Shown in pieces: positions 1 to 63,863 of a stretch of 64,000 bases of DNA. The translations under genes were made by a program, and so were the position numbers. The stretch lies in assembly GCA_021683455.1 (NCBI GenBank), contig GCA_021683455.1_3051.1, one strand, 5' to 3'. The stretch is from a phage. Below the pieces are notes generated by a model, which did not search any database, was not told where the DNA came from, and worked only from the letters and a program-made list of their open reading frames with translations. The first letter of the stretch is position 1. Each line of letters begins with the position of its first letter.

Positions 1-70
1 GATAGGATAATATATTATAAAGGGTAGAAACTAAATGATGCCTAGAGAGGCCTGGAAAGGCCTAGATACC

Positions 71-101
71 AAAAAGCCCCAACCTTTTGGTCGGGACTAA
101 G
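71..101 (-). terminator. Minus-strand hairpin plus T-run after the CTS-protein gene; near-identical copy at 626..656
   Basis: Reverse complement reads cccgacc-AAAA-ggttggg followed by gcttttt; the ~31-nt element recurs at 626..656. Confidence 0.55.
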
Positions 102-105
102 AATG

Positions 106-579
106 TTATTTGATTTGTTTAGCAGACCAAATGCGGTCTTTAATAATTTTTTGGATGTCTTCAACATACTCTAGGTCATGAGCATGTGGGTTATCTTTAA
201 AGCTATGAGCACGAGCTAGCTTTTGGCCTTCAGTTTTGATTACTAAAAGCTCTTTAAGGATAGCTTCATATTTGGAGATAATTCCTTTAACGATATTTTT
301 TTCTTGTGCGACTTTAGGATCTGCTTTAGGAGCAGGTTTACCCGAAGCCTTTGCAAAAGCAGCGCCAGTAGCAACTAAACTTTTCCAGGCCATACTAACT
401 GCATTTCCCGTAAATCCTTCCGCTTTCATGTCGCGTGCGAACTGAAATCGCGATTCATCAGAAGCATCTTTGTAAGAATATTTACCCGCTGCAATGGCTG
501 CTTTTGCGACAGCTTGAATTTCGGTGCTAGATGCTTCATTTAACACCGCTTCATTTAAAAATTGAGTATATGATTTCAT
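106..579 (-). CDS. Internal head protein-like protein with N-terminal capsid targeting sequence (157 aa)
   Basis: N-terminus MKSYTQFLNE resembles the T4 IP capsid targeting sequence (IPI here starts MKTYQEF) with an L-x-E prohead-protease site; AGGAAA SD; late promoter upstream. Confidence 0.6.
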   Translation of the reverse strand: MKSYTQFLNEAVLNEASSTEIQAVAKAAIAAGKYSYKDASDESRFQFARDMKAEGFTGNAVSMAWKSLVATGAAFAKASGKPAPKADPKVAQEKNIVKGIISKYEAILKELLVIKTEGQKLARAHSFKDNPHAHDLEYVEDIQKIIKDRIWSAKQIK

Positions 580-615
580 CTTATTTCCTGTTTTAATTCG
601 TGGTTTTAATATACT

Positions 616-623
616 TATTTATA
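616..623 (-). promoter_or_regulatory. T4-type late promoter TATAAATA upstream of the CTS-protein gene
   Basis: Minus strand reads TATAAATA about 35 nt upstream of the start codon at 579. Confidence 0.5.
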
Positions 624-625
624 CT

Positions 626-656
626 AAAAAGCCCCAACCTTTCGGTCGGGGCTAAG
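626..656 (-). terminator. Minus-strand intrinsic terminator closing the tRNA/stable-RNA transcription unit
   Basis: Reverse complement gccccgacc-GAAA-ggttggggc followed by TTTTT. Confidence 0.6.
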
Positions 657-969
657 CCTTGCGGCAACCTTGTCGGGGTTCCACCTGCTAAGGCAAGTGT
701 TTGTACGAAACGCCGGGATTCGAACCCGGTTATTAAGCAGTTGACGCTACTCAATATTTTTAAAAGGCCATATCTCGACCATATCCGAACGTTCCGTCAA
801 AAACGCTACTCGGTTTACGGCAAAGATATTTCCTCGAATCGATAATTCGGTGCGCCGTTTCTGCTGTGATATAAGGGGACATTAACAAAACATAAAGATT
901 TATTAATGCCAGTCCTTAAACAGGGAACATCAGTCCGACGACTTGCCGGTAGCGACCCGGCTTCTTGTC
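657..969 (-). ncRNA. Stable RNA region downstream of tRNA-Arg with a tRNA-like 3' domain; cf. T4 species 1/2 RNAs (rnaC/rnaD)
   Basis: No credible ORF; T-arm-like ccgggTTCGAATcccgg at about 712..728 with a pairing 7-bp acceptor-like stem (cggaacg/cgtttcg); position matches T4 stable RNAs. Confidence 0.4.
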
Positions 970-1045
970 TGGTCGAGGCAGTAGGGATCGAACCTACGAC
1001 CTAGGACTTAGAAGGTCCTTGCTCTTCCTTCTGAGCTATGCCTCG
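970..1045 (-). tRNA. tRNA-Arg (anticodon TCT)
   Basis: Hand-folded cloverleaf on minus strand: acceptor CGAGGCA/TGCCTCG, anticodon loop CTTCTAA, T-arm GGTTCGATCC, encoded CCA. Confidence 0.8.
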
Positions 1046-1049
1046 GATT

Positions 1050-1124
1050 TGGCGGACGTGATAGGATTCGAACCTATAACCAATCGCTTAACAGGCGATC
1101 GCTCTGCCATTGAGCTACACATCC
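1050..1124 (-). tRNA. tRNA-Asn candidate (anticodon GTT)
   Basis: Acceptor GGATGTG/CACGTCC (one G-U), D-arm GCTC..GAGC, anticodon stem ATCGC/GCGAT with loop CTGTTAA, T-arm GGTTCGAATCC, CCA. Confidence 0.7.
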
Positions 1125-1128
1125 AAAT

Positions 1129-1215
1129 TGGTGGGGAGTGATGGAGTCGAACCACCCGAGTCGCAATGACAATGGATTTACAGTCCACACCGCTACCTCT
1201 ACGGGATAACTCCCC
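1129..1215 (-). tRNA. tRNA-Tyr candidate (anticodon GTA), long variable arm
   Basis: Acceptor GGGGAGT/ACTCCCC, anticodon loop CTGTAAA, long extra arm, T-arm GGTTCGACTCC, CCA; D-arm fold is imperfect. Confidence 0.6.
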
Positions 1216-1221
1216 TTAATT

Positions 1222-1296
1222 TGGTGGCCCTGGGTGGAATTGAACCACCATCTGGCGATTATGAGTCGCTTGCTTGAACCTTCCAGCTACAGGGCC
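1222..1296 (-). tRNA. tRNA-Ile (anticodon CAT, as in the T4 AUA-reading tRNA-Ile) or Met
   Basis: Acceptor GGCCCTG/CAGGGCC, anticodon loop CTCATAA, T-arm GGTTCAATTCC, CCA. Confidence 0.7.
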
Positions 1297-1297
1297 T

Positions 1298-1373
1298 TGG
1301 TGCTGATTGACGGAATCGAACCGCCGACCTTCTCATTACAAGTGAGTTGCTCTACCTACTGAGCTAAATCAGC
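1298..1373 (-). tRNA. tRNA-Thr (anticodon TGT)
   Basis: Acceptor GCTGATT/AATCAGC, D-arm TAGCTCAGTAGGTAGAGC, anticodon loop CTTGTAA, T-arm GGTTCGATTCC, CCA. Confidence 0.8.
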
Positions 1374-1378
1374 AAAAC

Positions 1379-1468
1379 TGGCGGAGGCGGTAGGATTTGA
1401 ACCTATGAGTCGCCGGAGCGACTGCCGGTTTTCAAGACCGGTGCATTAAACCACTCTGCCACGCCTCC
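1379..1468 (-). tRNA. tRNA-Ser (anticodon TGA), long variable arm
   Basis: Acceptor GGAGGCG/CGCCTCC, anticodon loop CTTGAAA, long variable arm, T-arm GGTTCAAATCC, CCA. Confidence 0.8.
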
Positions 1469-1474
1469 AAATAT

Positions 1475-2125
1475 TTATATATTGTTAATTTGATTTAGAA
1501 TTCTTTTTGCTTGAGTATGACTTACGCCAATATGCTTAGCATATTTAGATAATTCACCACGCTTAGAAAAATCATATAATTTAGAAATTTCTATTCTTCT
1601 TTTTCTTTCATCCGCAGAAACTTTTGCTTCGTTTGCTTTTGCTATTTTACGTTTAGCTTCTTGAGAATGAGTTTTACCAGCAAAGCCGTTCTTCATTAAT
1701 CCATTTGAAGACCATCCTTTTAATTTTCCGTTAGAATGTGCCTTTTTAACACCCAATGAAATTAATTCGCGTTGCTGATCTGTCATAGGATAATTATTTA
1801 TATGATCCCATCCACCTTCACCTCCAAGTTTTAAATTATACACATCTGGTCTATTTAAAAACTCTTCTGTGACAATATTTTTCTCGGCTTCAAGCATAGA
1901 TTCTTTATCGTCAAAATACTCTAATATTTCTTTAGAAAAATTTTCTATACCATATTTATCTTGGGCTCTTTTTAATAATTTACCAGAACCCATATATCCA
2001 TCATCTAAATTTTCGGTAGAATGCACACCAATATAAATTTTATTATTAATTTTATTTGTTATTTTATAAAGATAAAAATGCATATCAGTCCCTAATAAAG
2101 AACTGAGCGTCTCACGACGAGTCAT
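1475..2125 (-). mobile_element. segB: GIY-YIG homing endonuclease SegB, inserted inside the tRNA cluster (216 aa)
   Basis: N-terminal GIY-YIG module (FYLYKITNKINNKIYIGVHST..GYMGSG); sits between the two tRNA subclusters as T4 segB does. Confidence 0.8.
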
Positions 2126-2129
2126 AAAT

Positions 2130-2203
<74 letters not shown>

Positions 2204-2208
2204 AAATT

Positions 2209-2295
2209 TGGTGCGAGAAGTGGGACTCGAACCCACAAGGAAATCATTCCGCAGCATTTTAAGTGCTGTGCCTTTACCAATTTGACCATTCTCGC
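2209..2295 (-). tRNA. tRNA-Leu (anticodon TAA), long variable arm
   Basis: Acceptor GCGAGAA/TTCTCGC, anticodon loop CTTAAAA, long variable arm, T-arm GGGTTCGAGTCCC, CCA. Confidence 0.8.
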
Positions 2296-2296
2296 G

Positions 2297-2369
2297 CTGG
2301 GAATAAAGGACTCGAACCTTTGCATCTAGCAGTCAAAGTGCTATGCCTTACCAACTTGGCTAATTCCCA
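2297..2369 (-). tRNA. tRNA-Gln (anticodon TTG), no encoded CCA
   Basis: Acceptor TGGGAAT/ATTCCCA, anticodon stem TAGCA/TGCTA with loop CTTTGAC, T-arm AGGTTCGAGTCCT. Confidence 0.75.
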
Positions 2370-2435
2370 ATTATTAACAAAGGCTCTCAAATAAGAGCCC
2401 TTGATGATAGAGGGTATTAATCAGTGCGGTATGAG

Positions 2436-2465
2436 TTAATAATAACAAATAATTCTTAAAGCATA
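2436..2465 (-). promoter_or_regulatory. T4 middle (MotA-dependent) promoter candidate driving the tRNA cluster
   Basis: Minus strand reads aaTGCTTTAagaattatttgTTATTATtaa: MotA-box-like TGCTTTA about 12 nt from a TAnnnT -10; exact 30-nt copy upstream of gene 31 at 63521..63550. Confidence 0.5.
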
Positions 2466-2466
2466 T

Positions 2467-2754
2467 TTACCATTTATGATAATACATATTTACGATGCAG
2501 TCAAGACCCAAAGGATTCTTGAAAATATCATATTCAAGAGGACCTTTTTCTGTTTCAATAAAGAAATCAAAATTTACTGTATTAAATTTACGATCTTCCT
2601 TCACTAATTTAACTTGAGAAGATGAACGGTCAACATAAACCTTTTCAACTTCAAAACATGTTAAAACGCCATAATCATCAATCAAGGCTTTAGCCGCGTC
2701 TTGATCATATTTATATCCATTTTCAATGGATGATACTTTCGCATAAAGAATCAT
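2467..2754 (-). CDS. Hypothetical protein (95 aa)
   Basis: ORF in the early-gene direction, tightly packed with neighbours; no motif recognised. Confidence 0.6.
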   Translation of the reverse strand: MILYAKVSSIENGYKYDQDAAKALIDDYGVLTCFEVEKVYVDRSSSQVKLVKEDRKFNTVNFDFFIETEKGPLEYDIFKNPLGLDCIVNMYYHKW

Positions 2755-2756
2755 TA

Positions 2757-3161
2757 TTAACCTTTATCAACAATAGTATGTGTATGGGCATTTACGATTT
2801 GCCACCAGTCAAAACTATCGCCAAATCGTTTTGATTTATTGTCTTCAATAATTTGGCGTAATTCATCTTCTGTTTCAGCATACGCAATCAAATCATCATA
2901 TCCACCGCAAGGATAGTAATTATCGCCTGCGAACAAAAGAAAATTTACTTTAGATGGGTCTACATAATAATGCTCTTTAGGATATTTAGTTCCTTTCCAA
3001 TCAGTTACTTCAACATAACGATAAGAAAATCCATTTTTACTTTCAACCCAACTCCACGCTTCAAAAGGAGTATTAAAAACTCTATCAGGTATTAAATTAC
3101 CTTCAAAATGAGAAGGATTTGCATAATCCCCAGCATAAACATAATATTCGTTAATATTCAT
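2757..3161 (-). CDS. Hypothetical protein (134 aa)
   Basis: ORF abutting neighbours at both ends; no motif recognised. Confidence 0.65.
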   Translation of the reverse strand: MNINEYYVYAGDYANPSHFEGNLIPDRVFNTPFEAWSWVESKNGFSYRYVEVTDWKGTKYPKEHYYVDPSKVNFLLFAGDNYYPCGGYDDLIAYAETEDELRQIIEDNKSKRFGDSFDWWQIVNAHTHTIVDKG

Positions 3162-3347
3162 TTATTCACCTTTAGAAATTTTATCCATAACAATAGCGAT
3201 TAAACCAATTAAAAATGCTACTACAAGTGAAAAAACATTTTCTGCTGTAGTCAATAATCCGCATATAAATCCAACAAACATTGAAAAACTAAAAGCGGAA
3301 GCAGAAATTGCAATAGCAACATTTCGAATTAATTCACAACGTTTCAT
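3162..3347 (-). CDS. Small hydrophobic membrane protein (61 aa)
   Basis: Two predicted hydrophobic helices; SD GAGGAGAA upstream; early promoter immediately upstream. Confidence 0.55.
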   Translation of the reverse strand: MKRCELIRNVAIAISASAFSFSMFVGFICGLLTTAENVFSLVVAFLIGLIAIVMDKISKGE

Positions 3348-3369
3348 TTTATTCTCCTCAGTAGTTGAT

Positions 3370-3415
3370 AGGGTAATAGTATCACAACTAAAACCCTATG
3401 TAAACAACTTTGTGA
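3370..3415 (-). promoter_or_regulatory. T4 early-type promoter (copy 1 of 3)
   Basis: Minus strand AT-rich UP element, -35 GTTTAC, about 18-nt spacer, -10 TACTAT; shares the aaacaactttgtgaaat core with copies at 3735..3780 and 62245..62300. Confidence 0.55.
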
Positions 3416-3423
3416 AATATTTA

Positions 3424-3708
3424 TTACAAAAGATTTTTAGCAATAATTTTAAGCTGAGCTACTGAAATATGCTTGGCTTTAAACAAAGCAGTTTCTTCAG
3501 CAGGGGAGATAACGATTGTAGCACCATCTTTCTTAGCGGACCATCCATCACCCAGGTAAACAGTACCTTTGACTTCTTCGCCATCAACCAGGCTAATCAT
3601 CGGTTTACCTTCACGTCCTTTGTTTGCTTTAATAACTTCAGAAGTAAGGGTCGCTTCAGTCAAAGTAGAAGCGTTAGTGGTTGAAGTGAATTCTTGATAA
3701 GTTTTCAT
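3424..3708 (-). CDS. ipI: Internal head protein I (IPI), injected with the DNA (94 aa)
   Basis: Starts MKTYQEF (capsid targeting sequence); 94 aa versus T4 IPI 95 aa; sits next to 57B as in T4. Confidence 0.75.
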   Translation of the reverse strand: MKTYQEFTSTTNASTLTEATLTSEVIKANKGREGKPMISLVDGEEVKGTVYLGDGWSAKKDGATIVISPAEETALFKAKHISVAQLKIIAKNLL

Positions 3709-3734
3709 TTTATTTTCCTAATTAATTTTGATGA

Positions 3735-3780
3735 GGTAATAGTATCACTACCTCATCAGCATGTAAACAACTTTGTGAAA
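3735..3780 (-). promoter_or_regulatory. T4 early-type promoter upstream of ipI (copy 2 of 3)
   Basis: -35 GTTTAC and -10 TACTAT on minus strand; -10 lies inside the inverted repeat gatgaggta/tacctcatc. Confidence 0.55.
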
Positions 3781-4477
<697 letters not shown>

Positions 4478-4478
<1 letters not shown>

Positions 4479-5191
4479 TATAGTACCTTTAGTGTATTTT
4501 TAATTTTAGAAAAAAGTTCTTCAAGAGAACCATCGTTTGTAATTACTAAATCGCCATCACGAATTGGCAATCCAGCTTCTGTAATATGAGTATCATTGGA
4601 TTTTTGACCAGGACGAACTACATGAATTACTGTAGCACCCATCGCCCTAGCCGCATCCATTTCATGATCTTGACGGGTATCAGGAACGATATAATAATCA
4701 TAACCTGAGTTAAATTTATCAAGATAATCTAAAGCAAATAATTTTACCCAATACATGCGGTCGAAGTTATTAACAATCAAATCCGTACCTAGGGCTTGCA
4801 TCAGACGACGGACTGACCATTGATCTTCAATATTATTTATAACGTCAGCAATCTTGTTAAATGCTACGAAATTAACTGCGTCATCAAAAACAAACACACC
4901 TTTAATTGGGCTTTTACTATTAAGATAGCAAAATGCTTGTTCCATAATCGTAATTACTTCTAATTTAGTCAGATTTAAATTAGTCTCACGATCATAGTCA
5001 ATTCCTTCAAACTCTTTACGAGTTAAGCAAGGATAGTCAGTGTTTGCTGCAAATACTCCCCATGCATAAGCCAATGCATCCTTAATAGGACCAGCAAGTT
5101 GATATTTAACTGCAGAATAATTGCTCATGATAAAATCAGCAGTAGTATCTTTTCCACTACGCTTTACACCGCTTAAAAAGATTAGTTTCAT
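4478..5191 (-). CDS. 1: gp1, deoxynucleoside monophosphate kinase
   Basis: P-loop GVKRSGKDT; likely start at MKLIFLSG (track ORF extends to 5230); synteny 57A-1-3-2-4. Confidence 0.85.
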
Positions 5192-63161: not shown

Positions 63162-63497
63162 TCACTTATAAAGACATGGAATAGCTTTATAGTGGCAAGT
63201 GACGAATTTTTGTTTAATTTCTTTTGGCTGCTTAAGACCCAGAGCTACAAAAGGATGCGGAACATTTCGAATTTGACCAACTGGAAGAGAAGTCAAATCA
63301 CCAACTTCGCAGAAACCTTCAGGAACATCAGGACCGACAGAGTGAACTACACACAGTTCAGGAACTTCACCTTGAACACGTTTACCGATAATAAGTCCTG
63401 ATTCTGTAACTTCTTCATCACCGGCTTGTGCAGGTTCAGAAACTAAAATAACATATTCACCGACAGCACGAATTGGCAGCTGTTGTACTTCAGACAT
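63162..63497 (-). CDS. 31: gp31, GroES-like co-chaperonin for capsid protein folding (111 aa)
   Basis: [26 protein letters not shown].. matches my recall of T4 gp31; 111 aa. Confidence 0.9.
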
Positions 63498-63520
63498 CGT
63501 TTTTCCTTTTTTGTTAACAG

Positions 63521-63550
63521 ATGAATTAATAATAACAAATAATTCTTAAA
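63521..63550 (-). promoter_or_regulatory. T4 middle (MotA-dependent) promoter candidate for gene 31
   Basis: Exact 30-nt copy of the element at 2436..2465: MotA-box-like TGCTTTA plus TAnnnT -10, about 25 nt upstream of the gene 31 start. Confidence 0.5.
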
Positions 63551-63554
63551 GCAT

Positions 63555-63863
63555 TTATTTACCAATAAATTGGAGTAAATGCTCAACTTTCATACCATTA
63601 ACAGAAATCAATTTGTCAATAGAAAAACCTCGCCAAGCGCCAAGTTCAATATCAAATACTGGAATCATGTCAGTAGATTCTTTCCGAGTAGATTCAGTCA
63701 ATTTACCGGTTTGCATGGTTGGCATAAAGTCTGCATCACGAGTACCTTTCATAGTACGAATAGTACCATCAGACTTTTCAAAAACTACGTTTGAAACACC
63801 CATGGACAATTTAGTTTTCAAAATTTCGCGAATTGCTACTTTCTGCTCAGTTGTCAGTTTCAT
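63555..63863 (-). CDS. Hypothetical protein (102 aa) upstream of gene 31
   Basis: ORF in the same orientation; position of T4 31.1. Confidence 0.55.
   Translation of the reverse strand: MKLTTEQKVAIREILKTKLSMGVSNVVFEKSDGTIRTMKGTRDADFMPTMQTGKLTESTRKESTDMIPVFDIELGAWRGFSIDKLISVNGMKVEHLLQFIGK

Follow-up and report, generated by a model that had tools for sequence, protein, structure and literature searches.

Early genes trna.4, trna.3, and trna.2 of a T4-like phage: a putative domain duplication, a hypervariable cassette, and a gene linked to tRNA loci

THREE GENES BETWEEN ipI AND THE tRNA ARRAY

A 64,000-nucleotide (nt) stretch of phage DNA, contig GCA_021683455.1_3051.1 of NCBI GenBank assembly GCA_021683455.1 (here called the window), carries three small open reading frames (ORFs) at positions 2467 to 3347, between a cluster of tRNA genes and ipI, the gene for internal protein I. 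The window is Tequatrovirus (T4-like) DNA: a 2-kb query around the locus matched 875 phage records, and the best matches by megablast were Escherichia phage OES_C-3 (96%) and T4 (94%). An earlier note, made from the sequence letters, had placed ORFs of 61, 134, and 95 amino acids (aa) here, in exact agreement with the ORF list, and had called them uncharacterized. Taken to mean unrecognized, that description does not hold. The ORFs are orthologs of the T4 genes trna.4, trna.3, and trna.2, in the T4 order, and two of the products belong to existing families, namely PF27001 (Trna.2) and PF26894, 'Phage_T4_Y07C' (Trna.3). The three genes, taken from the ORF list, are as follows.

3347-3162, minus strand: trna.4 ortholog, 61 aa
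3161-2757, minus strand: trna.3 ortholog, 134 aa; its ATG comes immediately after the trna.4 stop codon
2754-2467, minus strand: trna.2 ortholog, 95 aa; its ATG lies 2 nt past the trna.3 stop codon

Identity to the T4 proteins (UniProt P13322, P13323, and P13324, in the order listed) is 100% for Trna.4 (61/61), 85% for Trna.3 (116 of 136 aligned columns), and 93% for Trna.2. In the T4 reference, the genes sit between ipI/57B and tRNA-Gln (AF158101.6, 73514-72628), and the window shares with T4 their order, strand, and promoters, as well as the neighbors ipI, 57B/acb1, and tRNA-Gln. The two phages differ in a loop of the Trna.3 C domain (NENKPDYGSNR in T4, NKSKRFGDS in the window), slightly in the C terminus of Trna.2, and in the composition of the tRNA array behind trna.2. 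All three are long-annotated hypothetical genes of T4 with uncharacterized functions, and their recovery here is a reidentification, not a discovery. What the present analysis adds to the known annotation is a predicted domain duplication in Trna.3, the cassette behavior of its gene, and the genomic linkage of Trna.2.

AN EARLY, TRANSLATIONALLY COUPLED OPERON

Several lines of evidence establish that the ORFs are coding. Over their full length, the proteins match PHROG families 2023 (Trna.2; E = 5e-47, residues 1-95), 1411 (Trna.3; E = 3e-50), and 1692 (Trna.4; E = 6e-35, residues 1-61), and tblastn finds single-copy homologs in 804 phage records for trna.2, 764 for trna.3, and 791 for trna.4, with protein conservation across genera that reaches down to 27 to 40% identity. 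Codon-level comparison with 14 related loci gave ratios of nonsynonymous to synonymous substitution (dN/dS) of 0.13 to 0.35 for trna.3 and of 0.10 to 0.37 in most comparisons of trna.2 (0.59 in one nearly identical pair); within Tequatrovirus, trna.4 has a dN of 0 at a dS of 0.05 to 0.16. Purifying selection therefore acts on all three genes. Moreover, Shine-Dalgarno-like sequences (AAGGTG and AAGGT) stand at the coupled starts, where the stop/start gaps are 0 and 2 nt, and in other genera the stop and start codons of trna.4, trna.3, and trna.2 overlap. This spacing, together with the Shine-Dalgarno-like sites, indicates translational coupling of the three genes.

Expression data are available for T4. 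In a time-resolved study, trna.2 and trna.3 fall into the early class by both RNA sequencing and proteomics, and peptides of both proteins were seen by mass spectrometry; trna.4 belongs to the early RNA class, with no protein detected (PMC9697503 supplement). The missing peptide signal is unsurprising for a 61-residue membrane protein. The PHROG matches, the selection on the codons, and the T4 early RNA and protein data thus bear out the view that these are genuine early genes. Short, AT-rich, nonessential ORFs upstream of a tRNA array might instead be chance frames, without function, in the long 5' leader of the tRNA transcript. That explanation is already refuted by dN/dS values far below 1 (with zero nonsynonymous change in trna.4 at a dS of up to 0.16), by conservation across genera to 27 to 40% protein identity, by the Shine-Dalgarno sequences and coupled codons, by the T4 Trna.2 and Trna.3 peptides, and by the separate promoter that the tRNA array possesses downstream of trna.2.

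The signals that delimit the unit are listed below.

3376..3418, minus strand: early sigma-70-type promoter of trna.4, with a conserved upstream block, a -35 element GTTTACA, and a TG-extended -10 element TACTAT (promoter scan and alignment)
3354..3359, minus strand: Shine-Dalgarno sequence GAGGAG, 6 nt before the trna.4 ATG (read from the sequence)
2439..2466, minus strand: middle promoter, MotA dependent, that serves the tRNA array (PtRNA in T4; pattern match at 2439-2463)
2378..2403, minus strand: hairpin of 11 bp in the leader that runs from the middle-promoter start to tRNA-Gln (RNA fold of -20.2 kcal/mol, z = -3.4 versus shuffles)

An early promoter copy had been proposed to drive this region, and one was found: the promoter scan returned TTTACA-17-TACTAT with an extended TG at 3404-3376, and alignment with the ipI promoter (3767-3739) revealed identical blocks of 21 and 14 bases, ATTTCACAAAGTTGTTTACAT and GTGATACTATTACC. 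T4 early promoters are of this UP/-35/TGn/-10 type (PMC2988021). At the other end, the final base of the trna.2 stop codon (2469-2467) is also the first of the MotA promoter, which continues downstream with a perfect MotA box, ATATGCTTTA (2466-2457), a 12-nt spacer, a -10 element TATTAT (2444-2439), and a predicted start near 2432. The published consensus is (a/t)3TGCTTtA at 12 ± 1 bp from the -10 element, and the T4 PtRNA start was mapped at 72593 (PMC2988021), 35 nt beyond the stop of T4 trna.2; a separate middle promoter for the tRNA array is also reported elsewhere (PMC2330249). With an early promoter before trna.4 and a MotA promoter after trna.2, the three ORFs constitute an early unit, and the tRNA array is started separately. 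In sum, trna.4, trna.3, and trna.2 form one early, translationally coupled accessory operon that ends where the tRNA middle promoter begins. No intrinsic terminator was predicted in 2100-4400, and an Rfam scan of 1-5000 returned only tRNAs. The leader hairpin might have a part in the processing or the stability of the tRNA precursor.

Trna.3: TANDEM PF26894 DOMAINS IN A HYPERVARIABLE CASSETTE

In alignments of Trna.3 homologs, the C half (approximately residues 71-134) is nearly invariant and the N half (approximately 1-70) is variable. Profile comparison by hhalign relates the N domain to the C-domain family with a probability of 88% (E = 2.9e-6). On this evidence, Trna.3 appears to be an internal tandem duplication of the PF26894 domain in which the first copy has strongly diverged. 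The family signature is F-x-G-x-x-Y-Y-P-x-G-G-x-x-D ... (D)W(W/Y)(Q/H)I(V), and in the window it is found at residues 79-90 (GDNYYPCGGYDD) and 118-123 (DWWQIV), in columns that are invariant or nearly so among homologs. The earlier statement that none of the proteins shows a recognizable motif is thus wrong for the 134-aa protein, given FAGxxYYPxGGxxD...DWWQIV in its duplicated domain.

A precomputed PF26894 match is present on all Trna.3 homologs, near and distant, and the family is also named in the neighboring-gene table; a profile built in this analysis recovers the window protein at E = 1e-27. The name of the family presumably comes from the UniProt entry of T4 Trna.3. When 1.8 billion representative proteins were searched in full by HMMER with the Trna.3 profile, 457 representative clusters matched at E ≤ 1e-3; almost all of these match the C half only, and most PF26894 members are stand-alone proteins of 60 to 80 aa. 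Trna.3 therefore shares the motif with the members of PF26894 and PHROG 1411 and differs from most of them, which are single-domain proteins, in having two copies in tandem. An AlphaFold (AF2) model contains two similar alpha/beta units (predicted local distance difference test [pLDDT] score, 72.6). The protein is acidic (net charge, -10), and 19% of its residues are aromatic.

The stand-alone members of PF26894 come from many types of phage, where their genes are embedded in arrays of small accessory ORFs and have no constant neighbor; in two cases the gene stands beside RtcB or NAMPT. One relative, P0079, is fused to a helix-turn-helix domain, a fusion that fits PF26894 as a binding or oligomerization module. 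A link of PF26894 to tRNA genes, of the kind described below for Trna.2, was considered and rejected, as only one of seven stand-alone loci has a tRNA within 5 kb.

The gene itself is exceptionally variable. Comparison of the window with three Tequatrovirus contigs gave 47 to 65% nt identity across trna.3, with sharp edges, and 95 to 100% across the flanking trna.4 and trna.2. In these divergent-allele comparisons, dS is 1.3 to 1.6 in trna.3 and 0.04 to 0.1 in the flanks. Such a high dS, combined with sharp boundaries at the gene ends, points to old alleles swapped by recombination and not to recent mutation. The halves of the protein also reassort, since P0003 and P0006 join other N-domain types to the C domain of the window. 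Hence, trna.3 behaves as a hypervariable cassette, flanked on either side by a gene that hardly varies, and its alleles follow the pattern that would be expected if the protein tracks a partner that itself varies. The suggestion that the locus varies among T-even phages consequently stands for trna.3 and for the ipI slot described below and falls for trna.4 and trna.2, given their 95 to 100% nt identity among Tequatroviruses. Covariation of trna.3 alleles with trna.2 was rejected, as trna.2 is 97 to 100% identical whatever the trna.3 allele.

The number of PF26894 copies at the locus varies too, with one in Gelderlandvirus, two in most genera, and three in Klebsiella and Enterobacter phages. 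Gelderlandvirus has a single-domain Trna.3 of 70 aa; the single-domain loci are L010, L021, and L022. In most of the Klebsiella/Enterobacter-type phages, an extra free copy of 60 to 70 aa lies between trna.4 and trna.3 (loci L011, L028 to L032, and L034 but not L033). In addition, a metagenomic protein of 94 aa (P0057) joins residues ~34-99 of a Trna.3 allele to the last 28 to 30 residues of the equivalent of the window ORF at 106-579, with the junction at a shared K(E/D)NPHAH. This structure implies a natural variant in which a deletion has removed trna.2 and the entire tRNA/stable-RNA region along with the end of trna.3.

Trna.2: LINKAGE TO tRNA GENES AND COPURIFICATION WITH DRT1

Homologs of Trna.2 carry PF27001. 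Nine positions are invariant across subfamilies (G13, D17, V36, S44, N58, V60, F64, I77, and I87), the protein is acidic (16 D+E versus 12 K+R; isoelectric point, 4.9), and the AF2 model is mostly beta (pLDDT, 70.2).

The genomic setting of the gene recurs. In Tevenvirinae (approximately 30 loci from at least eight genera), the Trna.2 homolog is the last or next-to-last ORF before a tRNA array on the same strand, at a distance of 3 to 630 nt, and this adjacency holds despite differing tRNA repertoires. In Erwinia phage Cronus and at locus L040, a Trna.2 homolog stands alone inside the tRNA array, without trna.3 or trna.4, and on a 371-kb metagenomic contig (L054 to L057) the homolog is again within a tRNA array. 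Moreover, in Vequintavirinae-type phages (L035 to L039), it lies 10 to 280 nt upstream of the gene for tRNA nucleotidyltransferase, the CCA-adding enzyme, and in the Vequintavirinae-type phage Mydo an HNH endonuclease gene stands between the two; in all of these there is no tRNA within 4 kb. The weakest homolog (L058, on a 50-kb contig) has no tRNA-related neighbor. Trna.2 is, then, genomically linked to tRNA arrays or to the CCA enzyme.

The Mydo homolog is annotated as part of a larger product, gp122 of Proteus phage Mydo (198 aa; L012, 2689-3285), which apparently runs two genes together; at L035 to L039, each of the two parts, the N-terminal one and the Trna.2-like one, has an ORF of its own, the latter with its start at the internal Met.

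A biochemical observation comes from work on bacterial immunity. Neville et al. (Nat Struct Mol Biol 2026; PMC13275509) studied DRT1, a defense reverse transcriptase with A-rich single-stranded DNA adducts. When tagged DRT1 was pulled down from T4-infected cells, only Inh and Trna.2 were enriched with the wild-type enzyme over a mutant lacking reverse transcriptase activity, and the enrichment of Trna.2 was not followed up in that study. The authors remarked, from a panel of 23 phages, that Trna.2 is confined to the closest relatives of T4; it is in fact present in approximately 800 genomes across two subfamilies. Phage factors that engage such enzymes, as triggers or inhibitors of retrons and of defense reverse transcriptases, include T4 Dda for DRT1; Trna.2 resembles them in that it copurifies with active DRT1. 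The two differ in that DRT1 escape mutations map to dda and none to trna.2 (PMC13275509).

Trna.4: A PREDICTED MEMBRANE HAIRPIN

The 61-aa product had been described as almost wholly hydrophobic with two helices, and its composition agrees: the grand average of hydropathy (GRAVY) is 1.22, with two hydrophobic stretches, at approximately residues 10-32 and 38-54, that exceed 1.6 on the Kyte-Doolittle scale. The N terminus is basic and the C terminus is charged, from which a two-helix hairpin in the inner membrane, with both termini in the cytoplasm, would be expected. Trna.4 is identical in 429 phage records. Across genera, M1, K2, E5, I7, R8, N9, S22, G26, L32, E36, M54, and I57 are invariant, and they cluster in an N-terminal head (MKRxExIRN), in helix 1 (S22 and G26), and in a loop that contains a glutamate (TTxEN). 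In all Tevenvirinae loci that have the gene, it lies between the internal protein slot and trna.3, on the strand of the tRNA array.

The T4 proteins Imm and Sp are small early membrane proteins of superinfection exclusion. Trna.4 resembles them in being small, early, dispensable in the laboratory, and predicted to be embedded in the membrane; it differs in being shorter (61 aa), in its conserved charged N-terminal head, and in lacking similarity at the level of Pfam families. A Pfam scan at E ≤ 1 gave only subthreshold matches to DUF7554, DUF2721, and NLRC4_HD2, and thus no membership in an Imm or Sp family, and an NCBIfam scan gave no family match. A class II holin or pinholin, which would have two transmembrane domains as Trna.4 has, was rejected on the grounds of the early promoter and RNA, the lack of an adjacent lysis gene, and neutral insertions.

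FLANKING GENES AND THE tRNA ARRAY

The operon is bordered by the following genes.

3424..3708, minus strand: ipI (internal protein I), upstream neighbor (PF11634, E = 1e-51)
3781..4236, minus strand: 57B, the Acb1 anti-CBASS phosphodiesterase, second upstream neighbor (PF23474, E = 1e-59)
2369-2130, minus strand: the block of tRNA-Gln, tRNA-Leu, and tRNA-Gly that opens the downstream tRNA array (ARAGORN and Rfam RF00005)

Internal protein I inhibits the GmrS/GmrD type IV restriction system (cited in the Silas et al. preprint and in the HIDEN-SEQ preprint), and T4 57B/acb1 is conditionally essential when CBASS is present (HIDEN-SEQ preprint). The genes trna.2 to trna.4 lie in the same early-transcribed, dispensable block as these two, and at both trna.3 and the ipI slot, phages that are otherwise near-identical carry divergent alleles; the three proteins differ from IpI and Acb1 in having no sequence or fold similarity to them, no capsid-targeting signal, and no 2H phosphodiesterase motifs. 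In many otherwise collinear phages (L014 to L034), the ipI slot holds unrelated or very divergent ORFs, and the dS of ipI relative to T4 is 0.58, compared with 0.06 to 0.16 for the flanking genes. In line with this variation, the ipI locus of phage Bas37 is reported to encode another inhibitor of type IV restriction (HIDEN-SEQ preprint).

The downstream array comprises nine tRNAs (Gln, Leu, Gly, Ser, Thr, Met, Tyr, Asn, and Arg) within 970-2369 on the minus strand. The T4 array has Pro and Ile, which are absent from the window, and the window has Met, Tyr, and Asn, as does the T2L-type array (PMC2330249). An ORF for a GIY-YIG endonuclease of 216 aa (1475-2125, minus strand; TIGR01453, E = 3e-12) stands between tRNA-Gly and tRNA-Ser; its product is 48% identical to T4 SegB, whose gene lies between tRNA-Ile and tRNA-Arg. 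On a Mosigvirus-like contig (L018, 5580-5673, plus strand), ARAGORN predicts a 94-nt tRNA with the anticodon UUA ('tRNA-Stop', ochre-suppressor-like) downstream of tRNA-Met/Arg.

The middle promoter of the array has a counterpart at the far end of the window. A block of approximately 40 nt, TGGTAAAT..ATGCTTTAAGAATTATTTGTTATTATTAA.TCAT, which includes the MotA box and the -10 element, is near-identical at 63497-63560 and 2431-2472, both on the minus strand. The former copy precedes gene 31 (co-chaperonin, 63162-63497), for which a T4 middle promoter, P31, is listed (PMC2988021). It thus seems that one promoter cassette is present twice, at sites separated by 61 kb. That the window wraps on itself by way of the identical 25-mer at 63529-63553 was ruled out, as identity at that offset is 28%.

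PROPOSED FUNCTIONS OF THE OPERON

We tentatively propose that the operon encodes conditional host-interaction or counter-defense factors and not housekeeping proteins or general host killers, and we put the probability of this at somewhat under one-half (approximately 0.45). The reading draws on the neighbors ipI (antirestriction) and acb1 (anti-CBASS), the allele swaps of trna.3, the copy-number variation of PF26894, and the enrichment of Trna.2 with DRT1. In T4, 92 to 98% of the TA sites in trna.2 to trna.4 were hit by transposons, the insertion indices are 0.92, 0.975, and 0.94, and all three genes are classed as 'Non-essential' on E. coli K-12 (HIDEN-SEQ preprint).

Under this proposal, Trna.3 would be a soluble, acidic, aromatic-rich binder composed of two PF26894 modules, of which the conserved C module may supply the fold or oligomerization and the N module would exist as deeply divergent alleles, swapped by recombination, that fit a variable host or defense target. 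Trna.2 may engage the DRT1 complex or its A-rich single-stranded DNA adduct, with a tie to tRNA biology. The putative cytoplasmic head of Trna.4 (MKRxExIRN) and its putative periplasmic loop (TTxEN) could engage a conserved membrane-associated target.

A number of observations weigh against the proposal. There is no direct functional evidence for Trna.2, Trna.3, or Trna.4. The main text of the HIDEN-SEQ preprint names none of the three among its hits for RexAB, RnlAB, CBASS, DarTG1, DarTG2, or minimal medium, and one of its comparison sheets, for a condition not identified, gives an adjusted p of 1 for all three. Even with Trna.2 in its genome, T4 is still sensitive to DRT1, and Trna.2 is therefore not an effective inhibitor of that DRT1; its enrichment with DRT1 could reflect altered protein abundance in aborted infections. 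Also, trna.4 and trna.2 are unusually conserved for genes of an arms race. The three proteins have no sequence match in PADLOC, NCBIfam, or the PDB, and the structure models, at pLDDT values of 70 to 73, are of only moderate confidence. Specifically, PADLOC gave no match below E = 0.03 for the three proteins and the stand-alone PF26894 members, profile searches against PDB sequences gave nothing, and a Foldseek search of BFVD gave only uncharacterized phage proteins. Subthreshold matches in the Pfam, NCBIfam, and PADLOC scans (Tpt1, E = 0.22; TusC, E = 0.045; REase_II, E = 0.03) were treated as noise and left unused. Literature searches for trna.3 and trna.4 turned up supplementary tables only.

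Two other explanations merit comparison with the counter-defense proposal. Trna.2, and possibly the whole operon, might serve the phage tRNAs in maturation, 3'-end (CCA) handling, stabilization, or protection by way of single-stranded RNA ends. The homolog is beside a tRNA array in all of the approximately 30 Tevenvirinae loci, occurs alone inside arrays (Cronus, L040, and the 371-kb contig), and lies near the tRNA nucleotidyltransferase gene in Vequintavirinae-type phages, and the stand-alone PF26894 genes, with tRNA linkage at one of seven loci, act as a control; reverse transcriptase-dependent copurification with DRT1 would also fit a binder of single-stranded, A-rich ends. Nevertheless, the acidity of Trna.2 is unusual in a nucleic acid-binding protein, the L058 homolog lacks a tRNA-related neighbor, and the array has its own middle promoter. 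Moreover, phage tRNA arrays are hot spots of accessory and mobile ORFs, so that cotransfer could give the linkage, and the Tevenvirinae loci share ancestry, which leaves only three or four independent contexts. We regard this explanation as rather doubtful.

Unlikely as well is an explanation built on the earlier note, by which the 61-aa protein would be a membrane effector, directed at superinfecting phages (exclusion) or at a function of the host, and its two companions would be host shutoff peptides. Trna.4 is very hydrophobic, two-helix, and early, like T4 Imm and Sp, and its 429 identical records suggest a conserved target, whether a host membrane component or the phage injection machinery; at the same time, it has no above-threshold relation in Pfam, and insertions in trna.4 are neutral on K-12. 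Toxicity has been surveyed in a relative: a 2026 preprint on Mosigvirus AV110 screened 45 early proteins, chosen as homologs of early-detected T4 proteins, of which six inhibited growth (gp94, 135, 204, 208, 214, and 263). With the numbering calibrated on gp94, the 109-aa ORF beside motA, the homologs of trna.2, trna.3, and trna.4 fall at about gp248 to gp252, outside the six inhibitors. By this numbering, Trna.2 and Trna.3 are probably not toxic, which speaks against a host-inhibitory role for these two. The Trna.4 homolog was probably not included in the screen, given that the protein was undetected in the T4 proteome that defined the candidates, and the screen accordingly counts neither for nor against its toxicity. 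Identity of the AV110 inhibitors 'Emp' or Gp263 with any of these genes was rejected, as Emp comes from the 109-aa ORF beside motA and, by the numbering, the trna homologs are at about gp248 to gp252.

Across the three proteins, the counter-defense, tRNA, and membrane effector explanations do not exclude one another. The first two could merge, for instance, if the tRNA pool were protected from tRNA-targeting defenses. A specific joint scheme, in which Trna.2 would recognize single-stranded A-rich or 3'-end nucleic acid and help to trigger or blunt DRT1 and perhaps tRNA-targeting defenses, and the N-module alleles of Trna.3 would set which host or defense protein is neutralized, strikes us as distinctly improbable in its full form.

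IMPLICATIONS

T4 is the best-studied large lytic phage, and approximately half of its genes, including trna.2 to trna.4, have no function assigned. A counter-defense neighborhood is emerging in the block that extends from acb1 to the tRNA array, with acb1 acting against CBASS and ipI against type IV restriction, and trna.2 to trna.4 are among its most widely conserved unassigned genes. The value of the present analysis lies in concrete, testable leads on known hypothetical genes. If Trna.2 does engage DRT1 or tRNA metabolism, it would provide a handle on how DRT1 senses infection, a question left open by the 2026 study. Likewise, if PF26894 is a binding module, this would annotate hundreds of small proteins in phages of both Gram-negative and Gram-positive hosts.

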